In this document: positions 5,007 through 55,885 of the stretch, one piece after another | Layout: every line of letters starts with the position of its first letter | Numbering within the stretch: position 1 is the first letter of the stretch | Origin: Escherichia coli O157 typing phage 15 | Length of the DNA: 64,000 nt | Sequence record: KP869113 | Reading direction: 5' to 3' (one strand) | Program-made: the position numbers and the translations under genes | Notes under the pieces: generated by a model | Seen by the model: only the letters and a program-made list of their open reading frames with translations | The model's database searches: none | Told to the model about the DNA's origin: nothing

Positions 5007-6422
5007 TTACCAGATATAACGGTCAATCATTACTGCTTTGAGCATTACACTGATTGGGTCAAACTTCTCACCACCAAGCAGAGCTTTTAAAGTGGCTGGA
5101 GAGAACCCTGATACCATTGCTACACCGTTATCCTTAACAGATACTTCGCAAGTACCATTACGGTTTGCTAAGTACCAGAATACCAGTTGTGGCATCTCAT
5201 ATCCAGCTTTTTTGTACTTACTCTGAATTGCTTCAAAGTTTGTACGACCGTTAGCTCCATCAACCTGATTAAACTCCATATCGGAGAAGATGATAAGCTT
5301 ACTTGGCATATCTTTCTGAGTCAAGTTGTTTCTTTTACCTGTTTCAAGAATGCGGTCAAAAGCTGCTTGTAAGTTAGTTGAGCCATATTCAACGTGTCGC
5401 ATCACCTGACGATGACGGTTTCGTAAATCACCACTCAGTTCGATGAAGTGAGGGTTTGTTGAATAAACCATCAACTCATTCTTAAAGCAACCTGTATTGC
5501 GTTCTGCTACATACAAGGCAAGTGATACACCAATATCCAGAGCAGTAATGGAGCCAAAATTCACCCAAGACATTGAACTTGATACATCAGACATACACAA
5601 GATGTTTTCACCTTCTGCCATCCAGTTTGGTAGTGCTTTCCACTGCTCATTAGCAACATCTGCATTACCATACTTGACAGATTTAATCACATCGTATGGG
5701 TAAACAGCACCAGCGTTAATCTTAGTCTCACCTTTTGATAAGGACTCGATGTAAGCTTTGTAACGCTCTCCATCTTTACGGTTAAACAGTTTTTGGTAAC
5801 GTGCAGCAGCAAGTGAAGGAATCTTACTGTAGTCAATCTTACCAAACTCATTAGCAGAGATTTTTTGCTCAACTGTATCAGATAGTGCAGACAACAGTGT
5901 GCGGTACTCTTTCTCACTCAAGTTGGCAAACTTGCAGAAACGTTTTACAAACTGCTTATGACGTGGTTTGACTCGTGGTAACCACTTAGCCGCCAAACCT
6001 GCTGTTGCAGGGTCTAGTAATGCTGCTTCTAAATGTTTGAAGGCATCTGTCTCGAAACGAGTACCTACGAAGATTTTGAAGTCATCAAAACGACCAAGTT
6101 CTGCAATCTTATCCATAATGCGAAGAACCTGCGTAGACTCTAAAACTTTGTCTTCAATCGCTTGAAGTAAAACAGCTCTGAAGGCTTTACGCTCACCCAT
6201 ACCTTCTCGTACATCTCGCATATGCAGTAAAATACGAACTGCAACATCAACATCCTCACGCAAAGCTTTGTAGAACAGGTCTGGTAAGATTTCTACATTG
6301 CTACGGCTTGAACCAGCAGCTTTGTAAAAGTCTACAAGAGCAGACATTGATGAAGTATGGTTTACAGCACCATTTTCAGTTCGACCTGCATGAAGGTGCG
6401 CATGTTTAAATAACTCGCTCAT
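5007..6422 (-). CDS. vWA (MIDAS) domain protein with N-terminal alpha-helical domain; Ro60/TROVE-like or DUF2828-like architecture
   Basis: 471-aa ORF; C-terminal ILCMSDVSSSMSW (DxSxS MIDAS) ... LIIFSDMEF typical of vWA fold; first gene downstream of the tRNA/ncRNA block. Confidence 0.6.
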   Translation of the reverse strand: MSELFKHAHLHAGRTENGAVNHTSSMSALVDFYKAAGSSRSNVEILPDLFYKALREDVDVAVRILLHMRDVREGMGERKAFRAVLLQAIEDKVLESTQVLRIMDKIAELGRFDDFKIFVGTRFETDAFKHLEAALLDPATAGLAAKWLPRVKPRHKQFVKRFCKFANLSEKEYRTLLSALSDTVEQKISANEFGKIDYSKIPSLAAARYQKLFNRKDGERYKAYIESLSKGETKINAGAVYPYDVIKSVKYGNADVANEQWKALPNWMAEGENILCMSDVSSSMSWVNFGSITALDIGVSLALYVAERNTGCFKNELMVYSTNPHFIELSGDLRNRHRQVMRHVEYGSTNLQAAFDRILETGKRNNLTQKDMPSKLIIFSDMEFNQVDGANGRTNFEAIQSKYKKAGYEMPQLVFWYLANRNGTCEVSVKDNGVAMVSGFSPATLKALLGGEKFDPISVMLKAVMIDRYIW

Positions 6423-6503: not shown

Positions 6504-6875
6504 TTATTTTTTAAGGGTTGCAACAGCAGAGAACGTTGGTTTGTTATCTGTCTGAGACTGACCACCGTTATCAGGAGTCTTCTTAGTGTCTGCTGCAATT
6601 GCTTTCATCTCACCTGCTGAGTGGGTCATGATAGTTTTACCGACTTCAATCATGCTCTTGATGGTTACATCGTCTGTGTTTAACCCGAACTCTGCAAGCT
6701 TAGCAGCGTCCCTTGTAACAATCGCCTCAAACAACTTTGCAGCAAACTCAGCAGAATTATCAATGGTCAGTTGAGCTTTTACAAGTGAGCTTTTGTTACG
6801 AGAGCCTTTTGGTCTTCCAGATGGGTTTCCAGACTGGCCTTTTTTAAACTGGCCTTTGTTTGTTCTGTTTTTCAT
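6504..6875 (-). CDS. hypothetical protein with GNPxGRPKG basic motif
   Basis: 123-aa ORF; N-terminal KGQFKKGQSGNPSGRPKGSRNK motif common in phage proteins. Confidence 0.5.
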   Translation of the reverse strand: MKNRTNKGQFKKGQSGNPSGRPKGSRNKSSLVKAQLTIDNSAEFAAKLFEAIVTRDAAKLAEFGLNTDDVTIKSMIEVGKTIMTHSAGEMKAIAADTKKTPDNGGQSQTDNKPTFSAVATLKK

Positions 6876-7004
6876 TGGTATGCCTCTTATAAGACCTCTT
6901 AAAAGGCTTTTAAGATAAAAGATAGATATCCAGAAAGATATCTGTTTAAATAGCCTTTTTAGAGGAACCTTTTAAGTTATCTTCTAAGTATTTATAAGCC
7001 TACA

Positions 7005-7286: not shown

Positions 7287-7501
7287 AAATCGCAGATATT
7301 ATAGATTTATATCAAACTGCAAAGAGTCATGGCTATATAACCTCAATTGGAAAGAATAGTCACTATGATGCTTTGACTGGAATGTATTTCAGGGCAATGG
7401 CTCAATCTAGTGAACAACACTTAATGGTTTCTTCCAGTGAGTTTACTTCGTTTCTCTATTGCAGCAAAATTATAAATCGCAGGAGAACTGAAAAATGCTA
7501 A
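7268..7501 (+). CDS. hypothetical protein
   Basis: 77-aa ORF in tightly packed same-strand module. Confidence 0.4.
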   Translation: MCSSQLEIADIIDLYQTAKSHGYITSIGKNSHYDALTGMYFRAMAQSSEQHLMVSSSEFTSFLYCSKIINRRRTEKC

Positions 7502-8085
7502 CAGTAAGTTTTAATTACAATAGTGATGGCTCTGTATCAATTAATTCACCATATGCAAATGACCTACTTAAAGAGCTAGTCAATCAGTGTGATAGAGGTC
7601 TTCACTATGTTCAAAATTCTTTTAAACAGAAGACTATTGCTAATAACTTGATGCGTGTAACAGTAACGGCATCGAATCCAAATTATGACTTTGATAGTGA
7701 AAGTCCGTACTCATTAGTTGCGCTTGGAGAGAGCAGCCAATTCAAACTTGTTTGCCACGACTCAGAAACATTCCTTAAGGTCTTTTCCAACCTTATCCAT
7801 AATAATAAGTACAGCTACGTTGATGGTAGTGTAAATTTCTATCCAGCAAACTATACATGTTTGTTGGTTGATAATATGAGAAAAAGTAAGCAAGAGCCTA
7901 CGGAAATTTCATTTGATGTGAACTCTAGTCCAGACGCAGAAACAAGTAAGAACTTTGATATGAGTTACGCATTGTCACTTAGTAAGAAATCCGAGTTCAT
8001 TGATTATGTCAATGGATTTGGTTTTAAGTTTGATGAGAGTATGAATCTTAAAAAACTTAAGAACCTACTTAAGACCAAAGCTTAA
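7495..8085 (+). CDS. hypothetical protein
   Basis: 196-aa ORF, start overlaps previous stop. Confidence 0.55.
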   Translation: MLTVSFNYNSDGSVSINSPYANDLLKELVNQCDRGLHYVQNSFKQKTIANNLMRVTVTASNPNYDFDSESPYSLVALGESSQFKLVCHDSETFLKVFSNLIHNNKYSYVDGSVNFYPANYTCLLVDNMRKSKQEPTEISFDVNSSPDAETSKNFDMSYALSLSKKSEFIDYVNGFGFKFDESMNLKKLKNLLKTKA

Positions 8086-8092
8086 GTGTGAA

Positions 8093-8116
8093 TAGGGGCT
8101 GATGCCCCTTTAACTA
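8093..8116 (+). terminator. terminator-like hairpin
   Basis: aggggc-tgat-gcccct followed by a short T-rich stretch (ttaactattta). Confidence 0.35.
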
Positions 8117-8132
8117 TTTATAAGGATATTTA

Positions 8133-8504
8133 ATGAAAGCTAAGAGTGCAAAAGACTTTTATTGCTTCCTACAATCCTATATCAATTCCGTGCAAAATGG
8201 TGAAAGGTACAACCTTAATGATGTTATCCCAACACCTTTGACATGGAGACTCAGTAAATGGCCTGAAGAAGATATTACACCAACAATCGAACAATGCACC
8301 TACAAACCCGAAATCAATATTCCAGACTCTGAGAATCTATTATATCCAATGTTCCATATTGTTGGTCTTGGAAGATTCCTTATGGATATCCAGTATATAA
8401 TTGGTAAAGGTTATAAGGTTAAAGGTATTGTTGTTGGTGATGTATCTCCGAATCACAAAGGTTATTTTAGGCTAAACGCACATTTAGAGGCTGAAAAGAA
8501 ATGA
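8133..8504 (+). CDS. hypothetical protein, paralog of the N-terminal domain of the next gene
   Basis: shares KRY(D/N), WPE(A/E)DI, YKP(D/E), (F/L)MD(L/I)QY(A/I)I blocks with 8501..9382. Confidence 0.55.
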   Translation: MKAKSAKDFYCFLQSYINSVQNGERYNLNDVIPTPLTWRLSKWPEEDITPTIEQCTYKPEINIPDSENLLYPMFHIVGLGRFLMDIQYIIGKGYKVKGIVVGDVSPNHKGYFRLNAHLEAEKK

Positions 8505-9382
8505 TTAAAGCAAAGACTTACCCAGACTTCAAAGAGTTTGTGAAGGGCTTCATTGCAAACGTAAAGGCTGGTAAGAGGTATGATTTTAGAACATATCAAG
8601 AGGCTATTTTACCACTTACCTATAGCTCGTATTGGCCTGAAGCTGATATTGCAGAAGTTGAGAAGTTTGACTATAAACCAGACTATAAAGTCCCATTTAG
8701 TGATGAGTTGCTTTACAGTGTTGGTGCTCAAATGAGAACTTCTGACTTCTTCATGGACTTACAATATGCAATTATCAATGGTAAAGACGTTGATACAGTT
8801 TATTGTGAATGGCTGGCAAGAGTTAAACCATTCTCAATGTTGAATGCTAAGTTGAAGGACGCTATCAAGCCACCATCAATCACTCAGCAACCAACCAATC
8901 AAACAGTAAATGAAGGTGGTACACTTACCCTAAGCGTTATTGCAACTAATGCCACTGGATATCAATGGAAAAAGGATGGTGAGGATATCACTAGCGCCAC
9001 ATCTGCAACCTACACAAAACAGTCTGTAGAACCTTCTGATGCAGGTTCATACACTTGCGTTGTAACAGGTGCAGGTGGTTCTGTCACTTCTAGCCCTGCA
9101 ACGGTTACTGTTAACGCACTTCCGGTAATCACTCAACAGCCAACCAATCAAGAAATCAATGAAGGTGAGACCTTAACGCTGAATGTTGTGGCAACAGGTG
9201 CGACAGGTTACCAGTGGAAGAAAGGTGAGGAAGACATCCTTGATGCAACTACTGCAACTTACACCAAAGAAGGTGCGACCGCTGCTGATGCAGGAAGCTA
9301 CACCTGTGTAGTTACTGGTGCAGGTGGCTCTGTAACATCCAATGCAGCAACAGTTACAGTTAACCCAGCAGGGGAGGCGTAA
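8501..9382 (+). CDS. protein with two tandem Ig-like domains fused to a paralogous N-terminal domain
   Basis: two ~90-aa repeats ITQQPTNQ(T/E)(V/I)NEG.TLTL.V.ATGYQWKK...YT(K).......DAGSYTCVVTGAGGSVTS...ATVTVN, typical Ig-like beta-sandwich signature. Confidence 0.6.
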   Translation: MIKAKTYPDFKEFVKGFIANVKAGKRYDFRTYQEAILPLTYSSYWPEADIAEVEKFDYKPDYKVPFSDELLYSVGAQMRTSDFFMDLQYAIINGKDVDTVYCEWLARVKPFSMLNAKLKDAIKPPSITQQPTNQTVNEGGTLTLSVIATNATGYQWKKDGEDITSATSATYTKQSVEPSDAGSYTCVVTGAGGSVTSSPATVTVNALPVITQQPTNQEINEGETLTLNVVATGATGYQWKKGEEDILDATTATYTKEGATAADAGSYTCVVTGAGGSVTSNAATVTVNPAGEA

Positions 9383-9846
9383 TGCAACTCTCAAGAAAAG
9401 GTTTAGATGCTATTAAGTTCTTCGAAGGTCTGGAGTTAGAGGCTTACGAAGATTCTGCCGGAATCCCAACAATCGGGTATGGGACAATCCGTATTGACGG
9501 AAAACCTGTTAAGATGGGTATGAAAATTACTGCTGAACAAGCTGAACAGTATCTTCTCGCGGATGTTGAGAAGTTTGTTGCAGCAGTGAACAAAGCTATC
9601 AAGGTTCCAACTACTCAGAATGAGTTCGATGCACTTGTAAGTGAAACATACAACATCGGTATCACAGCTATGCAGGATTCCACATTTATCAAGCGCCACA
9701 ATGCTGGTAATAAGGTAGGTTGTGCAGAAGCTATGCAGTGGTGGAACAAGGTTACAGTCAAAGGTAAGAAGGTCACTTCAAACGGTCTGAAAAACAGACG
9801 TAGAATGGAAGCTGACATTTATCTTGACAGTGTATACCCAAAGTAA
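9382..9846 (+). CDS. endolysin, T4-type lysozyme (glycoside hydrolase family 24)
   Basis: N-terminal FEG.ELEAYEDSAGIPTIGYG catalytic region and overall T4 lysozyme-like sequence. Confidence 0.8.
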   Translation: MQLSRKGLDAIKFFEGLELEAYEDSAGIPTIGYGTIRIDGKPVKMGMKITAEQAEQYLLADVEKFVAAVNKAIKVPTTQNEFDALVSETYNIGITAMQDSTFIKRHNAGNKVGCAEAMQWWNKVTVKGKKVTSNGLKNRRRMEADIYLDSVYPK

Positions 9847-9855
9847 TATCTTCAT

Positions 9856-9882
9856 AGGCTCCTTCGGGAGCCTTTTTTATTT
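9856..9882 (+). terminator. rho-independent terminator
   Basis: aggctcc-ttcg-ggagcct perfect stem followed by tttttta. Confidence 0.7.
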
Positions 9883-9897
9883 TCTAAGGAGAAAGCT

Positions 9898-52152: not shown

Positions 52153-52221
52153 CATTGTCAACTTGCTTTTTATAATTTTTTGCAGTAATGTATGAGGTTA
52201 ATGATTTTAGAGGGAGTAAAA

Positions 52222-54845
52222 ATGGAAAACGTAGATTTTAAAAACTTACATTTAGTTGGTGATACAGAAACTGATGGTTTACTCCTTGAGTTCACTAAAG
52301 TTCACGTAATGGCTTTCGCAGACTACAAATCTGACGACGAAGAACCACCAGTATGGGTCTTTACTGATGAGCCTATTCTCGGTCACAAGTACACTAAGTA
52401 CATCAAGGGTGGATTACGTGAAGGTATTGAGTTTGCGTTGAAGGCAAAACGACTTTGTATCCATAATGGTCTCGGTTATGACTGGTGGGTTTTCAATCAC
52501 ATTGCACCGGATTTATGGAACTTTGATAATCCAAAGTGTAAGCCATGGAGTAATTTCTTTCAGGATTCTCTTATCCAGTCTCGTGTTCAGTGGATGGATA
52601 GACCAACTCCAAAGGGTTATAAAGGCGCTCATGGCTTGGCTGCATGGGGTGCTCGTGTTGGTGTTCGTAAACCAGAGATTGAACATTGGGGTGTGTGGAA
52701 TGCAGAAATCTTCACTCGTGTTGTAGAAGATATCCGTATTAACGCCAAAACTAAACGGGCACTTGATAACGAGTATCTCAAGCTTAAGAAGTGTGGTATA
52801 GACACTTATGAAACTTACATGCGAGCTAAAGAGACATCTTTCTGGATGAGCCAACAAGCTATCAATGGTTGGAAAGCTGATAAGGAGCTTATGGAGTTCC
52901 ATGTAAAGGAGCTTGACAAATTGACTAATGAACTTGCTTCAGAGGTTGAACCACATCTACCTCCAACTATTAAGACCAAAGGTAAAGTCACTGGAGAAGA
53001 GTTTGCAAAAGCTTGGAATGAGTATGTTGAAACATTCGGTCATGCAGATGGACTGAAGAGAATTACCAAGTACCCTAAAACAAAGTATCGTCAACAGGTA
53101 CGTAACGGTGAGATGCAGACATACGAAATCAAGCCATTTGGTAAGCCAACTACAAAGATTTTTAACATTGAAAAGAGAAATTGCTATACACCAACCAACT
53201 CTGTAACTGGTGAAGAGTACAAGGAAGGCTTTGTAGCAATGAAGGATGCTCGTGCAATTTGCAATGAGTTGAACGCAAAGATTGGTAAGAAATGCAAAGA
53301 CTGGAAGCCAGTAAAAACAGTCAAAACTGTGAAGTACTATAATAGCCACGTTGTTAACCACTTTGAGCTTGAGTCGAGTCGCTACACAGGTTTGATTGAT
53401 GCACCATATACACCAATTGAGTTTGAAGTTTCTCGTATGACTCAGGTAGCAGTTGTTAAAGACTACTTGAAATCAGTTGGTTGGATTCCAGATGACTGGA
53501 ACTACAAGAAAGACTCAGATGGTCGCCCTGTCAAAGTTTGTCGTTTCAAAGACAATAAAAAGATGATTACAAAGCATCCTAAGTGGCAGGAAATGGTTGA
53601 GCGGTGTGGTTTGAGCTATGTTGAGCATGAAGGTGTACAGTACATTGAGCATAACTGGTCTGTGAAGAAATACACAGATTTGCTTGAGCCTTGCTTAATC
53701 CGTACTTCACCAAAACTTACTGAATCATCTTATGATACGATTGAAGGTGAGCTTGGACAGAAGATTGCTAAGTACTACACTTTGATGCACAGACGCAGAA
53801 CTATTGAGAACTCAAAGGATGACGAGAAAGGTTGGCTGAACCAGATTCGTCCAGATGGTCGCCTTAGTGCTGGTGCAATGGTATTTGGTACTTCAACTGG
53901 ACGTATGACACAATATGGTATTGTAAACGTACCGTCTGGTGCGGCTGTCTATGGGGAACCAATGAGGGCAGTGTGGATTTGTGAAGAAGGTACTAATGTT
54001 GTCTCTGTAGACATGAACTCAGCCCAGCTAGTTCTCCTTTGTAACTTTATGGGTGACAAAGACTTCACCAAAGCGGTAACGCAAGGTAAAGAAGAGATTG
54101 AGTTTATTCGTCAAGAAGATGGACGCTATTACTGCAAACATTTTGATGAGTACCTAAACCCAGAAATTGATAAGTACCTTCGCTATGACTCTGAGAATGA
54201 CCTGTACGTTGTCTATTCAGGGACTGATGCACATACACTGAACAGTATTTACTTTAGCTTGAATGATGAGCAGGATATCTTGACTTGTCGAGCTACTCAG
54301 GATGAGAATCTTCTTCATGAGATTAGCAAAGGTCGTAAGAAAGCTAAGAATGGTATCTATGCACTACTGTTCGGTGCAGGTGATGAAAAGTTTGCTAAAA
54401 CTATTAAGGCAGCCACTACTCAGGAAGGTGCATTAACTAAACAGACTTACTTTGTGCGTTTGCCAAAGATTAAGAAACTATTAGATAACTTGGAAGCTGA
54501 CTACAAAGCAACTAAGAAGGCACTTGAAGAGGTGTTTGGTAAGACCGCTGCAATCTCTAAAGGGGGCTTCGTAAAGGTTGCTGGAGCTTGGTTGTGGTGT
54601 AAATCTCCACACAAACTGTTGAACTACCTTTTGATGGGTTCAGAGGCTCAGATTCAAAATGAGGCAATCAACCTTGCTTGTCGTCGTATGATTGACGAAG
54701 GTTTGATGAAATTGAATGGTCGTCAACCAGCTATTGGTGCTCGTTTGCTCTGCGCATATCACGATGAAACAAGTTGGGAATGTCCAGAAAGTATGACGGC
54801 AGAAGTGAAAGCAGTTACTGACTGGTATTATGGACAAGCTTCTAA
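52222..54845 (+). CDS. DNA polymerase, family A (3' end cut by scaffold gap; C-terminus at 59745-59897)
   Basis: start at ATG with GGGAG RBS; family-A motif C region YHDETSWECPE; last 76 nt before the gap are identical to 59745-59820. Confidence 0.8.
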
Positions 54846-55817
54846 NNNNNNNNNNNNNNNNNNNNNNNNNNNNNNNNNNNNNNNNNNNNNNNNNNNNNNN
54901 NNNNNNNNNNNNNNNNNNNNNNNNNNNNNNNNNNNNNNNNNNNNNNNNNNNNNNNNNNNNNNNNNNNNNNNNNNNNNNNNNNNNNNNNNNNNNNNNNNNN
55001 NNNNNNNNNNNNNNNNNNNNNNNNNNNNNNNNNNNNNNNNNNNNNNNNNNNNNNNNNNNNNNNNNNNNNNNNNNNNNNNNNNNNNNNNNNNNNNNNNNNN
55101 NNNNNNNNNNNNNNNNNNNNNNNNNNNNNNNNNNNNNNNNNNNNNNNNNNNNNNNNNNNNNNNNNNNNNNNNNNNNNNNNNNNNNNNNNNNNNNNNNNNN
55201 NNNNNNNNNNNNNNNNNNNNNNNNNNNNNNNNNNNNNNNNNNNNNNNNNNNNNNNNNNNNNNNNNNNNNNNNNNNNNNNNNNNNNNNNNNNNNNNNNNNN
55301 NNNNNNNNNNNNNNNNNNNNNNNNNNNNNNNNNNNNNNNNNNNNNNNNNNNNNNNNNNNNNNNNNNNNNNNNNNNNNNNNNNNNNNNNNNNNNNNNNNNN
55401 NNNNNNNNNNNNNNNNNNNNNNNNNNNNNNNNNNNNNNNNNNNNNNNNNNNNNNNNNNNNNNNNNNNNNNNNNNNNNNNNNNNNNNNNNNNNNNNNNNNN
55501 NNNNNNNNNNNNNNNNNNNNNNNNNNNNNNNNNNNNNNNNNNNNNNNNNNNNNNNNNNNNNNNNNNNNNNNNNNNNNNNNNNNNNNNNNNNNNNNNNNNN
55601 NNNNNNNNNNNNNNNNNNNNNNNNNNNNNNNNNNNNNNNNNNNNNNNNNNNNNNNNNNNNNNNNNNNNNNNNNNNNNNNNNNNNNNNNNNNNNNNNNNNN
55701 NNNNNNNNNNNNNNNNNNNNNNNNNNNNNNNNNNNNNNNNNNNNNNNNNNNNNNNNNNNNNNNNNNNNNNNNNNNNNNNNNNNNNNNNNNNNNNNNNNNN
55801 NNNNNNNNNNNNNNNNN
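54846..55817. other. assembly gap (972 N)
   Basis: run of n; left flank duplicated at 59745, right flank duplicated at 60718. Confidence 0.99.
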
Positions 55818-55885
55818 ATCATTCATAAGTTTGATGTTGCTGGTGATGTTCAAGTTATCGACGTAGAGATTGGTGGTAAGAGAAA

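Follow-up and report, generated by a model that had tools for sequence, protein, structure and literature searches.

A Felix O1-like phage locus with a probable Hex-Dec capsid decoration gene and a conserved Ig-less paralog of its capsid-binding domain

Introduction

The closest described counterparts of the locus analyzed here are the genes of Hex-Dec, a capsid decoration protein of Felix O1-like myophages. Cryo-EM structures are available for Hex-Dec of phage Bas63 (JohannRWettstein; 9NCF chain S) and for gp20 of phage Sf14 (9C2D and 9C3A, chain S). The capsid-binding domain (CapBD), formed by the ~120 N-terminal residues, occupies, as a monomer, the centre of each of the 60 hexamers at the facet edges of the T=9 capsid. 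In Sf14 gp20, Arg79 and Arg107 form salt bridges with Asp221 of the major capsid protein, and the number of Ig-like domains varies from one to four between phages (PMC12609058, PMC11821841). The protein was found in virions by mass spectrometry for Sf14 gp20 (PMC11821841) and with 44% coverage in CsCl-purified virions for its Felix O1 counterpart, ORF36 (PMC3185647). Two publications already remark that the gene lies apart from the structural module, one on Felix O1 gene 36 (PMC3185647) and one on Bas63 (PMC12609058). Transcripts of Felix O1 ORF36 and ORF37 peaked at 60 min, in the RT-PCR class of morphogenesis genes, in a classification noisy enough for the major capsid gene 58 to be scored "early".

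We analyzed a window of 64,000 nt from Escherichia coli O157 typing phage 15 (KP869113), in which two adjacent genes, here called ORF A and ORF B, precede an endolysin gene. The main feature of the locus, an Ig-domain gene whose product is located on the virion surface, is already known from the published cryo-EM work. The sole previously unreported detail is ORF A as a conserved Ig-less copy of the Hex-Dec CapBD; no paper mentioning ORF A was found in the literature.

Organization of the locus

Escherichia typing phage 1 (Felixounavirus TP1; KP869100 / NC_041979) was 100% identical to the window. The coordinates of ORF A (8133-8504, 123 aa) and ORF B (8501-9382, 293 aa) were confirmed. The features of the locus are as follows.

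7495..8085, plus strand: 196-aa gene of unknown function (TP1 gp125; phrog_4034, PHROG match 2.3e-115)
8095..8119, plus strand: terminator-like hairpin in the gap between gp125 and ORF A, read from the sequence as GGGGC-TGAT-GCCCC followed by a T-rich tail
8133..8504, plus strand: ORF A, Ig-less paralog of the Hex-Dec CapBD (TP1 gp124, Felix O1 ORF37, Sf14 gp21, bas63_0125; phrog_4463)
8501..8869, plus strand: ORF B residues 1-123, Hex-Dec CapBD with Arg79 and Arg107
8870..9121, plus strand: ORF B Ig-like domain 1, residues ~124-207 (Pfam, AlphaFold2, Foldseek)
9122..9382, plus strand: ORF B Ig-like domain 2, residues ~208-293, and stop codon (Pfam, AlphaFold2, Foldseek)
9382..9846, plus strand: endolysin, GH24 phage lysozyme (PF00959, 4.5e-41; phrog_7 endolysin)
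9856..9883, plus strand: strong intrinsic terminator, AGGCTCCTTCGGGAGCCT then TTTTTATTTT, at the 3' end of the ORF A-Hex-Dec-endolysin unit

The position immediately 5' of the endolysin, which had been read from the sequence at the outset, was borne out: the start codon of the GH24 lysozyme gene overlaps the ORF B stop codon by one base (TAATG, 9380-9384). The ORF B start codon in turn overlaps the stop codon of ORF A (ATGA, 8501-8504), and ORF A, whose ribosome-binding site AAGGA lies at 8122-8126, is translationally coupled to Hex-Dec. Because stop and start codons overlap and terminator-like hairpins flank the genes on both sides, the three genes from ORF A to the endolysin appear to form a single late unit. 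The annotation of phage wV8 places a rho-independent terminator at the site matching the 8095..8119 hairpin and a terminator also at the site equivalent to 9856..9883. A terminator scan of the window did not list the 8095..8119 hairpin, which has a weak stem and a weak T-tail.

A candidate for a shared promoter motif, TATTTATAAG, occurred exactly at 6989 and 8115, yet it was not enriched, with seven matches compared with 8.65 expected from shuffles, and a scan of the window for sigma-70-like promoters was at chance level; no promoter is proposed here. A -1 frameshift fusion of ORF A with ORF B, which lies in the -1 frame, was rejected; inspection of the overlap (GAA AAG AAA TGA) revealed no canonical slippery heptamer. 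The low-GC islands of the window were runs of N and were discarded as features.

The terminase and structural genes are ~9 kb away from ORF B, which lies past the tRNA cluster, in an arm that mostly carries small ORFs of unknown function. The order of gp125-like gene, (paralog), Hex-Dec and lysozyme was kept in 10 phages or contigs (Felix O1, wV8, HY02, BPS15Q2, Bas63, Silverhawkium, Moogle, Sf14, SUSP2, and metagenomic contig L012). The gp125-like gene was the constant upstream neighbour of the CapBD gene in all lineages examined, including the distant contigs L014, L017, L019, and L022, where a gp125 homologue lies immediately 5' of it. Searches with gp125 yielded no match in Pfam, PDB, PADLOC or NCBIfam.

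Identity of ORF B and its Ig-like domains

ORF B is very probably Hex-Dec, the Hoc-like capsid decoration protein of Felix O1-like myophages, and ORF A an Ig-less copy of its CapBD. This high confidence covers the identity of both genes and leaves the role of ORF A aside. In a comparison with the PDB, ORF B matched 9NCF_S of Bas63 (E=0) and 9C2D_S, Sf14 gp20 (E=3.6e-191). Over the first 123 residues, it has two differences from Bas63 Hex-Dec and is ~88% identical to Sf14 gp20, as counted from the alignments. Both Arg79 and Arg107 are present in ORF B and invariant across 18 homologues, and the dN/dS of the Hex-Dec CapBD is 0.035. Nothing contradicting this identity of ORF B was found. RefSeq and PHROG (phrog_3995) label the protein a "tail protein". 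We rejected this label, as the proteins closest to ORF B are modelled as chains in capsid reconstructions, and the Bas63 paper calls it a misannotation (PMC12609058). The correct label is capsid decoration protein.

The original prediction described tandem paralogs, the second of which carries two near-identical Ig-like repeats, and named structure prediction as the way to check the latter. Structure prediction was run, and both repeats are Ig-like. AlphaFold2 modelled residues 123-290 with a pLDDT of ~95, and a Foldseek search with this part found matches in Robo and titin, to their tandem I-set Ig domains (E~1e-15). Pfam agreed (Ig_3, 1.6e-23, with Ig_2 and I-set also above cut-offs). Only the Ig part of the model was used; the CapBD part was poor (pLDDT 33-53), in agreement with a remark in the Sf14 paper (PMC11821841). 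"Near-identical" overstates the likeness of the repeats, which are better called similar: they share 62 of 85 residues (73%), and their DNA identity is 68%. The paralogy itself is far beyond chance, at 37% identity between ORF A and the ORF B N-terminus (BLASTP, E=1e-16, over 101 aa within the first ~117 residues).

Hex-Dec has two Ig repeats in TP1, three in Sf14 and four in Bas63. The repeats at either end correspond between phages as positional orthologues, and gain or loss has affected those in between. The first repeat of ORF B is 89% identical to the first of both wV8 and Bas63. The second is, by sequence, the conserved terminal repeat because it matches wV8 Ig3 at 100% and Bas63 Ig4 at 94% identity.

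The Ig-less paralog ORF A

ORF A ends at residue 123, directly after the CapBD, and has no Ig domain. Searched against the whole PDB, it matched only the N-terminal domains of 9NCF_S (E=4e-12) and 9C2D_S (E=2e-11), over residues 2-117. Blocks common to ORF A and ORF B are KAK..DF..F, G.RY, PLT..S.WPE.DI, Y.P...P.S..LLY, F.MD.QY, and LNA.L. The AlphaFold2 model of ORF A (pLDDT 66.6, pTM 0.69) had structural matches to 9c2d_S and 9ncf_S only (TM 0.66-0.70).

At the positions of the two anchoring arginines, ORF A has Gly78 and His108, and both arginines are replaced in every paralog; of the 20 paralogs aligned, one has Ser at the position of Gly78. Conservation in ORF A is highest at residues 69-95, which in the alignment correspond to the part of Hex-Dec with the capsid-contacting Arg79. 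Net charge and pI, taken as a proxy for binding to acidic hexamer centres, varied within both the ORF A and the CapBD families and did not discriminate between them.

The dN/dS of ORF A was 0.134, which indicates purifying selection and is about four times the value for the CapBD. Three genera and a deeper metagenomic lineage have kept an intact frame of 122-124 aa, at synonymous divergence near saturation (dS 1.1-1.3). An intact ORF A was missing from up to 19 of 252 phage records; in REP11 and Z31 it is a pseudogene that has lost its start codon and carries an internal deletion of ~230 bp.

The ORF A orthologue was absent from the Felix O1 virion proteome, in which proteins of 9.7-13.7 kDa were detected (PMC3185647). 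The VpaE1 orthologue, ORF40, appears to be absent from the list of 22 virion proteins, as judged from the main text of that report. ORF A orthologues are likewise not part of the Bas63 and Sf14 capsid models, though both genomes hold intact copies (PMC12609058, PMC11821841).

Origin of the tandem pair

Word-index homologue searches reached close relatives only, and distant CapBDs were found with a HMMER profile. A full profile search of 1.84 billion proteins matched only 12 CapBD representatives. P0100-P0104 among these (profile E 8.6e-11 to 1.1e-4) are distant single-copy CapBD proteins, encoded on Ounavirinae-like metagenomic contigs. None of their contigs encodes a tandem Ig-less paralog. 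Where the contig was long enough (L017 and L019), the single CapBD gene again followed the gp125-like gene and preceded the lysozyme gene. The tandem pair is a lineage-specific duplication because these more distant relatives have a single CapBD gene at the locus.

On the tree, the ORF A paralogs and the Hex-Dec CapBDs formed separate clades, with the distant single-copy CapBDs outside both; relative to these outgroups, ORF A is the more derived copy. The tandem duplication that gave rise to ORF A is shown here to date back to the ancestor shared by Felixounavirus, Mooglevirus, Suspvirus, and one sister lineage from metagenomes.

The display modules of the distant proteins differed: P0100 and P0101 carry Big_2, P0102 one I-set-like Ig domain and P0104 a Lys/Ser-rich tail, with no Pfam match on record for the C-terminal part of P0103. 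This shows the CapBD to be a narrow, modular anchor that carries I-set, Big_2 or low-complexity display modules, which has some value for work on Felix O1-like phages in phage display or the engineering of capsids. The idea that ORF A cannot bind capsids once Arg79 is lost was rejected as too strong; the loss is weak evidence either way because P0103 and P0104 also lack Arg79.

Possible roles of ORF A

We tentatively favour, with somewhat less than even confidence, a role for ORF A as a dispensable accessory protein. Rather than being a stable component of the virion, it would function within infected cells, with the capsid lattice or the loading of Hex-Dec as its target, for example by transient occupation of, or competition for, hexamer centres. 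What speaks for any capsid role of ORF A is its homology, and the protein may not bind capsids at all because it is not in the virion proteomes.

It is possible, if somewhat unlikely, that ORF A acquired a new function unrelated to capsids (host-directed, lysis-timing or anti-defence) and kept the small helix-sheet fold. The fourfold higher dN/dS, the more derived position relative to the outgroups, the loss of both Arg anchors, the lack of detection in virions and the dispensability in one sublineage all fit such a change. Against it, positive signs of an alternative activity were missing: scans of ORF A with Pfam, NCBIfam and PADLOC yielded no match, no transmembrane segment was visible in its sequence, and its structural neighbours were CapBDs only. 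In addition, its strict retention beside Hex-Dec, with the stop/start overlap in every lineage, suggests a linked function.

An accessory factor of capsid decoration, produced in step with Hex-Dec, binding hexamer centres or Hex-Dec transiently and setting where, when and how many Ig fibres load, is an unlikely role for ORF A. If true, a decoration protein would have in ORF A its own regulator or chaperone, and its control of loading could help explain why Hex-Dec is found on only 60 of the 80 hexamers.

We consider it improbable that ORF A serves as another structural decoration protein, a "bald" one, placed on the 20 facet-centre hexamers that Hex-Dec leaves unused or sharing its sites. In its favour, ORF A has the CapBD fold from end to end, is expressed late and coupled in translation with Hex-Dec, and conserves best the segment aligned with that bearing Arg79. 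However, the Bas63 and Sf14 maps, at 3.0-3.1 Å, have no density on the other hexamers despite intact ORF A copies, and the density at the edge hexamers was modelled as Hex-Dec (PMC12609058, PMC11821841). The missing orthologues in the Felix O1 virion proteome and, by inference from its main text, in that of VpaE1 point the same way, as does the replacement of Arg79 and Arg107.

That ORF A is a decaying, functionless remnant of the duplication is very improbable. The pseudogenes of REP11 and Z31 and the records without an intact copy are what decay would produce, but they stand against a frame kept at 122-124 aa across three genera and the deeper lineage at near-saturated dS and a dN/dS of 0.13, a good ribosome-binding site, and transcription of the Felix O1 orthologue.

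Finally, the original prediction had regarded ORF B as an anomaly, an Ig protein in an "early-type" module beside a lysozyme, while stating that phage Ig-like domains usually belong to virion surface proteins. The general statement holds for ORF B as a capsid decoration protein, and the anomaly disappears with it. An early, non-virion Ig protein, with the lysozyme neighbourhood as a sign of unusual non-structural use, might be suggested by the ~9 kb that separate the gene from the structural genes and by the small ORFs around it, but it is refuted by solved structures and virion proteomics of close homologues: near-identical proteins are modelled in capsid maps, the Felix O1 orthologue is found in virions and has a late expression peak, and the position of the locus is conserved and already published.

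The residual value of the locus lies in ORF A, a conserved, selected and co-expressed CapBD-only duplicate, yet not seen in virions. It could show how the occupancy of Hoc-like fibres is set or how a structural domain is recruited to a new job, and the existence of natural ORF A-deletion phages makes it easy to test.

Comparison with known systems

Bas63 and Sf14 Hex-Dec are orthologues of ORF B, with the same CapBD, the same Arg79 and Arg107, I-set repeats and an equal arrangement of the locus (gp125-like gene, paralog, Hex-Dec and endolysin), and they differ from it only in the number of Ig repeats. ORF A has only the CapBD in common with Hex-Dec, at 37% identity, and lacks the Ig domains and both Arg anchors.

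[quoted passage not shown] T5 pb10 has one Ig domain, whereas ORF B has two.

T4 Hoc resembles Hex-Dec as a monomer at hexamer centres that carries several Ig-like domains in a row, held out from the capsid. Hoc reportedly has a role in the adherence of T4 to mucus, as Barr et al. are said to have described in 2013. [quoted passage not shown] Hoc is non-essential and has been implicated in adhesion and aggregation, according to the part of the source available to us (PMC10385173). The two proteins differ in domain order, as the capsid-binding domain is C-terminal in Hoc and N-terminal in ORF B, and in occupancy, as Hex-Dec decorates 60 of 80 hexamers and Hoc all. Compared with Hoc, the Hex-Dec CapBD is larger, topologically distinct and pseudo-C2 symmetric (PMC12609058). 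The Hoc-like PHROG matches of ORF B (phrog_2973 and phrog_4069) covered the Ig region only (residues 121-291). ORF B is a functional analogue of Hoc and not a member of its family.

Organization of the locus

The 2.9-kb stretch around ORF A and ORF B matched Escherichia typing phage 1 (Felixounavirus TP1; KP869100 / NC_041979) at 100% identity; against wV8, Felix O1 relatives, and numerous further Felixounaviruses, identity was 95–97%. Both genes were present as originally predicted, directly upstream of an endolysin that proved to be a GH24 phage lysozyme (PF00959, 4.5e-41). In the TP1 record, gp124 (ORF A) is a "hypothetical protein" and gp123 (ORF B) a "tail protein", with endolysin rrrD as the next gene. 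The features of the locus are:

5007-6422 (-), DUF2828/DUF7788 protein, annotated "RNA-binding protein", adjoining a tRNA cluster
6504-6875 (-), DUF5681 protein
7495-8085 (+), gp125-like protein, 196 aa, phrog_4034
8095-8108, weak hairpin before ORF A, terminator in the wV8 annotation
8133-8504 (+), ORF A, 123 aa
8501-9382 (+), ORF B, 293 aa
9382-9846 (+), endolysin (lysin)
9856-9883, strong terminator, downstream of the lysin

Stop and start codons overlap between ORF A and ORF B (ATGA, 8501-8504) and between ORF B and the endolysin (TAATG, 9380-9384). The order gp125-like gene, paralog, ORF B homologue, lysozyme was the same in 10 of the 10 loci examined. With the hairpin before them and the strong terminator after, ORF A, ORF B, and the lysin look like a single unit; a sigma-70-like scan and a motif search identified no promoter for it. 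The decamer TATTTATAAG occurs exactly at two sites only, in the divergent intergenic region (6989-6998) and right after the hairpin (8115-8124 (+)). As it was not enriched relative to shuffles when one mismatch was allowed, the pair may be a coincidence, or it may be a phage-specific signal. The two DUF genes are transcribed divergently from the unit.

Two observations concern the sequence records. In the composition profile, GC content seems to dip to 0.26 and 0.21, an effect of N runs (masked sequence at ~730-1450 and ~54845-55820, the latter within a large DNA-polymerase-like ORF starting at 52192) and not of true composition. The 147-kb record GU169904.1, "Staphylococcus phage SA1", contains this Felix O1-like region at 141392-144291 with 95% identity; the assembly is most likely chimeric or contaminated.

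ORF B is a capsid decoration protein

A sequence search of the PDB matched ORF B to 9NCF chain S (E = 0), an "immunoglobulin-like domain protein" of the icosahedral capsid of phage Bas63, and to 9C2D / 9C3A chain S (E = 3.6e-191), gp20 of the Shigella phage Sf14 capsid. Residues 1-123 differ from the Bas63 protein at two positions. [quoted passage not shown] The capsid carries 60 copies, one in each asymmetric unit. Arg79 and Arg107 are salt-bridged to Asp221 of the major capsid protein in Sf14 (PMC12609058, PMC11821841). Both arginines are found in ORF B and are invariant across 18 homologues. ORF B is thus a Hex-Dec family member with all the defining features tested, and this main feature of the locus was already known from published work. 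The "tail protein" label misannotates the gene, a point made by the Bas63 authors as well (PMC12609058). [quoted passage not shown]

The unusual location of an Ig gene is real but had been reported previously, for Felix O1 gene 36 (PMC3185647) and for Bas63, in which one decoration gene lies >10 kb away from the structural module (PMC12609058). The reading of the locus as an early-type module did not hold. In Felix O1, where ORF35, ORF36, and ORF37 correspond to the endolysin, Hex-Dec, and ORF A, respectively, ORF36 was detected in CsCl-purified virions (14 peptides, 44% coverage; PMC3185647). By RT-PCR, ORF36 and ORF37 were maximal at 60 min and fell into one class with morphogenesis genes 51, 53, 63, 64, 72, 73, 76, and 77, and the lysin peaked at 25 min. 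These RT-PCR data are noisy, as the major capsid gene was scored early, and are therefore supportive rather than decisive.

Two Ig-like domains were recovered in ORF B (Pfam Ig_3, 1.6e-23; Ig_2 and I-set also above the cut-off). The repeats are clearly related but not near-identical, as had been thought, sharing 73% identity in protein and 68% in DNA. The AlphaFold2 model of residues 123-290 (pLDDT ~95) matched tandem I-set Ig domains of Robo, titin, and MALT1 in Foldseek (E~1e-15). The structure prediction proposed as a check thus confirmed the Ig fold, and, as judged from this model, the possibility that the repeats are not Ig-like falls away. Among the phages sampled, two Ig domains were found in TP1, Felix O1, BPS15Q2, Moogle, and SUSP2, three in wV8, HY02, Silverhawkium, and Sf14, four in Bas63, and one in many 210-aa metagenomic versions. 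The first TP1 domain matches the first of wV8 and Bas63 (89%), and the second matches the last repeat (100% to wV8 Ig3, 94% to Bas63 Ig4), indicating that copy number shifts by gain or loss of internal repeats.

ORF A is a stand-alone CapBD

That the two genes are tandem paralogs was borne out by an alignment of their ~100–117 N-terminal residues (37% identity, E = 1e-16). In the PDB, ORF A residues 2-117 matched only the CapBDs of 9NCF_S and 9C2D_S (E = 4e-12 and 2e-11). Its AlphaFold2 model, of moderate confidence (pLDDT 66.6, pTM 0.69), matched the same two solved CapBDs over their whole length (TM 0.66–0.70); the structure search gave no further convincing neighbors, the next match having E = 0.8. 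Since the sequence and model matches are restricted to CapBDs, ORF A is a CapBD on its own. Identity was 83–100% across Felixounavirus and 73–76% in Mooglevirus and Suspvirus. A 5.8-billion-protein collection held 51 clusters of relatives (104–124 aa), and a deeper metagenomic lineage was represented by protein P0098 on an 87-kb contig with the gene order of the TP1 locus. Our literature search found no paper that mentions this CapBD-only paralog.

Origin of the tandem pair

On a neighbor-joining tree, the paralogs and the Hex-Dec CapBDs formed two distinct clades, with the outgroup CapBDs nearer Hex-Dec, which makes ORF A the derived copy. When 1.84 billion representative proteins were searched with a profile built from both families, only 12 matched at E ≤ 0.001. 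Among the distant matches, from metagenomic contigs, the CapBD was fused to Big_2 (P0100, P0101) or to one I-set-like Ig (P0102), or carried a Lys/Ser-rich tail (P0104); the C-terminal part of P0103 has no Pfam match on record. Two contigs, L017 and L019, were long enough to show a syntenic arm (DUF2828/DUF7788, DUF5681, and divergent 62-aa and ~185-aa genes) with a single CapBD gene immediately 3' of a gp125 homologue (26% identity, E = 7e-14). In L019, this gene lies directly upstream of the lysozyme, with no tandem paralog at the locus. Given the single gene in these distant syntenic arms, the ancestral locus had one decoration gene beside the lysozyme. Tandem duplication in the forebear of the group comprising Felix O1, Moogle, and SUSP produced the copy made of the CapBD alone.

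The DUF2828/DUF7788 and DUF5681 pair is kept even in these distant contigs. The gp125-like protein is the immediate upstream neighbor of the CapBD gene in every lineage; apart from phrog_4034, it had no match in any library searched. Its homologues share a conserved C-terminal motif, FDM..A.S...E...Y, including at distant single-copy loci. Those upstream of CapBD genes in other contigs are:

L014:248-865
L017:2622-3173
L019:4444-5001
L022:2-367

The gp125–CapBD linkage predates the ORF A duplication and may reflect a functional tie to the decoration protein.

Possible roles of ORF A

ORF A would be a late, co-translated accessory protein and not a stable part of the virion. The most likely role, proposed tentatively, is a transient action on either the capsid lattice or Hex-Dec loading. 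It is favored by the retained fold, by the strict linkage and translational coupling to Hex-Dec, and by the alignment of the most conserved ORF A segment (69-95) with the Arg79-bearing segment of Hex-Dec. Against it, both Arg anchors are replaced in ORF A (Gly78, His108), an argument weakened by distant single-copy CapBDs that likewise lack Arg79. A new function unrelated to capsids is somewhat less probable.

We consider it unlikely that ORF A is a second structural decoration protein. Bas63 and Sf14 carry intact copies (bas63_0125, 83% identical, and gp21, 75% identical), and the two cryo-EM papers neither list nor mention the orthologue (PMC12609058, PMC11821841); in Bas63, the other hexamers had no density (PMC12609058). 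Felix O1 ORF37 was not among the 17 virion proteins reported, though proteins of 9.7–13.7 kDa were detected (PMC3185647). For VpaE1, whose orthologue is ORF40, the main text gives only gp54, gp58, and gp68 as virion proteins new relative to Felix O1, which implies that ORF40 was not detected. The available evidence says that ORF A is absent from the virion, or at least not stably there.

ORF A is dispensable: of 252 phage records, as many as 19 have no intact copy, and a deletion of ~230 bp and loss of the start codon in REP11 and Z31 have left only recognizable 5' and 3' remnants. Pairwise Nei–Gojobori dN/dS across eight phages (inter-genus dS 1.1–1.3) was 0.134 for ORF A, 0.035 for the Hex-Dec CapBD, 0.079 for the lysin, and 0.095 for gp125. 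By these values, ORF A is a coding gene under selection and is evolving faster than the domain it derives from, and we give very little credence to its being a decaying duplicate.

The decayed copies belong to one Felixounavirus sublineage (L003, Shigella phage Z31, 2498-3070; L004, REP11, 2305-2498) and have identical deletion boundaries. Z31 additionally has a truncated Hex-Dec, broken into CDSs of 405 and 168 bp; most of the decoration system may be gone from this phage.

Comparison with known systems

ORF B works in a manner like T4 Hoc, from which a role of the Ig fiber in adhesion or aggregation might be inferred by analogy. However, its domain order is reversed, its "Hoc-like" PHROG matches are restricted to the Ig region, and it is not a Hoc family member. 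T5 pb10 has the same order of parts as ORF B, but the sequence similarity between them is confined to the Ig region.
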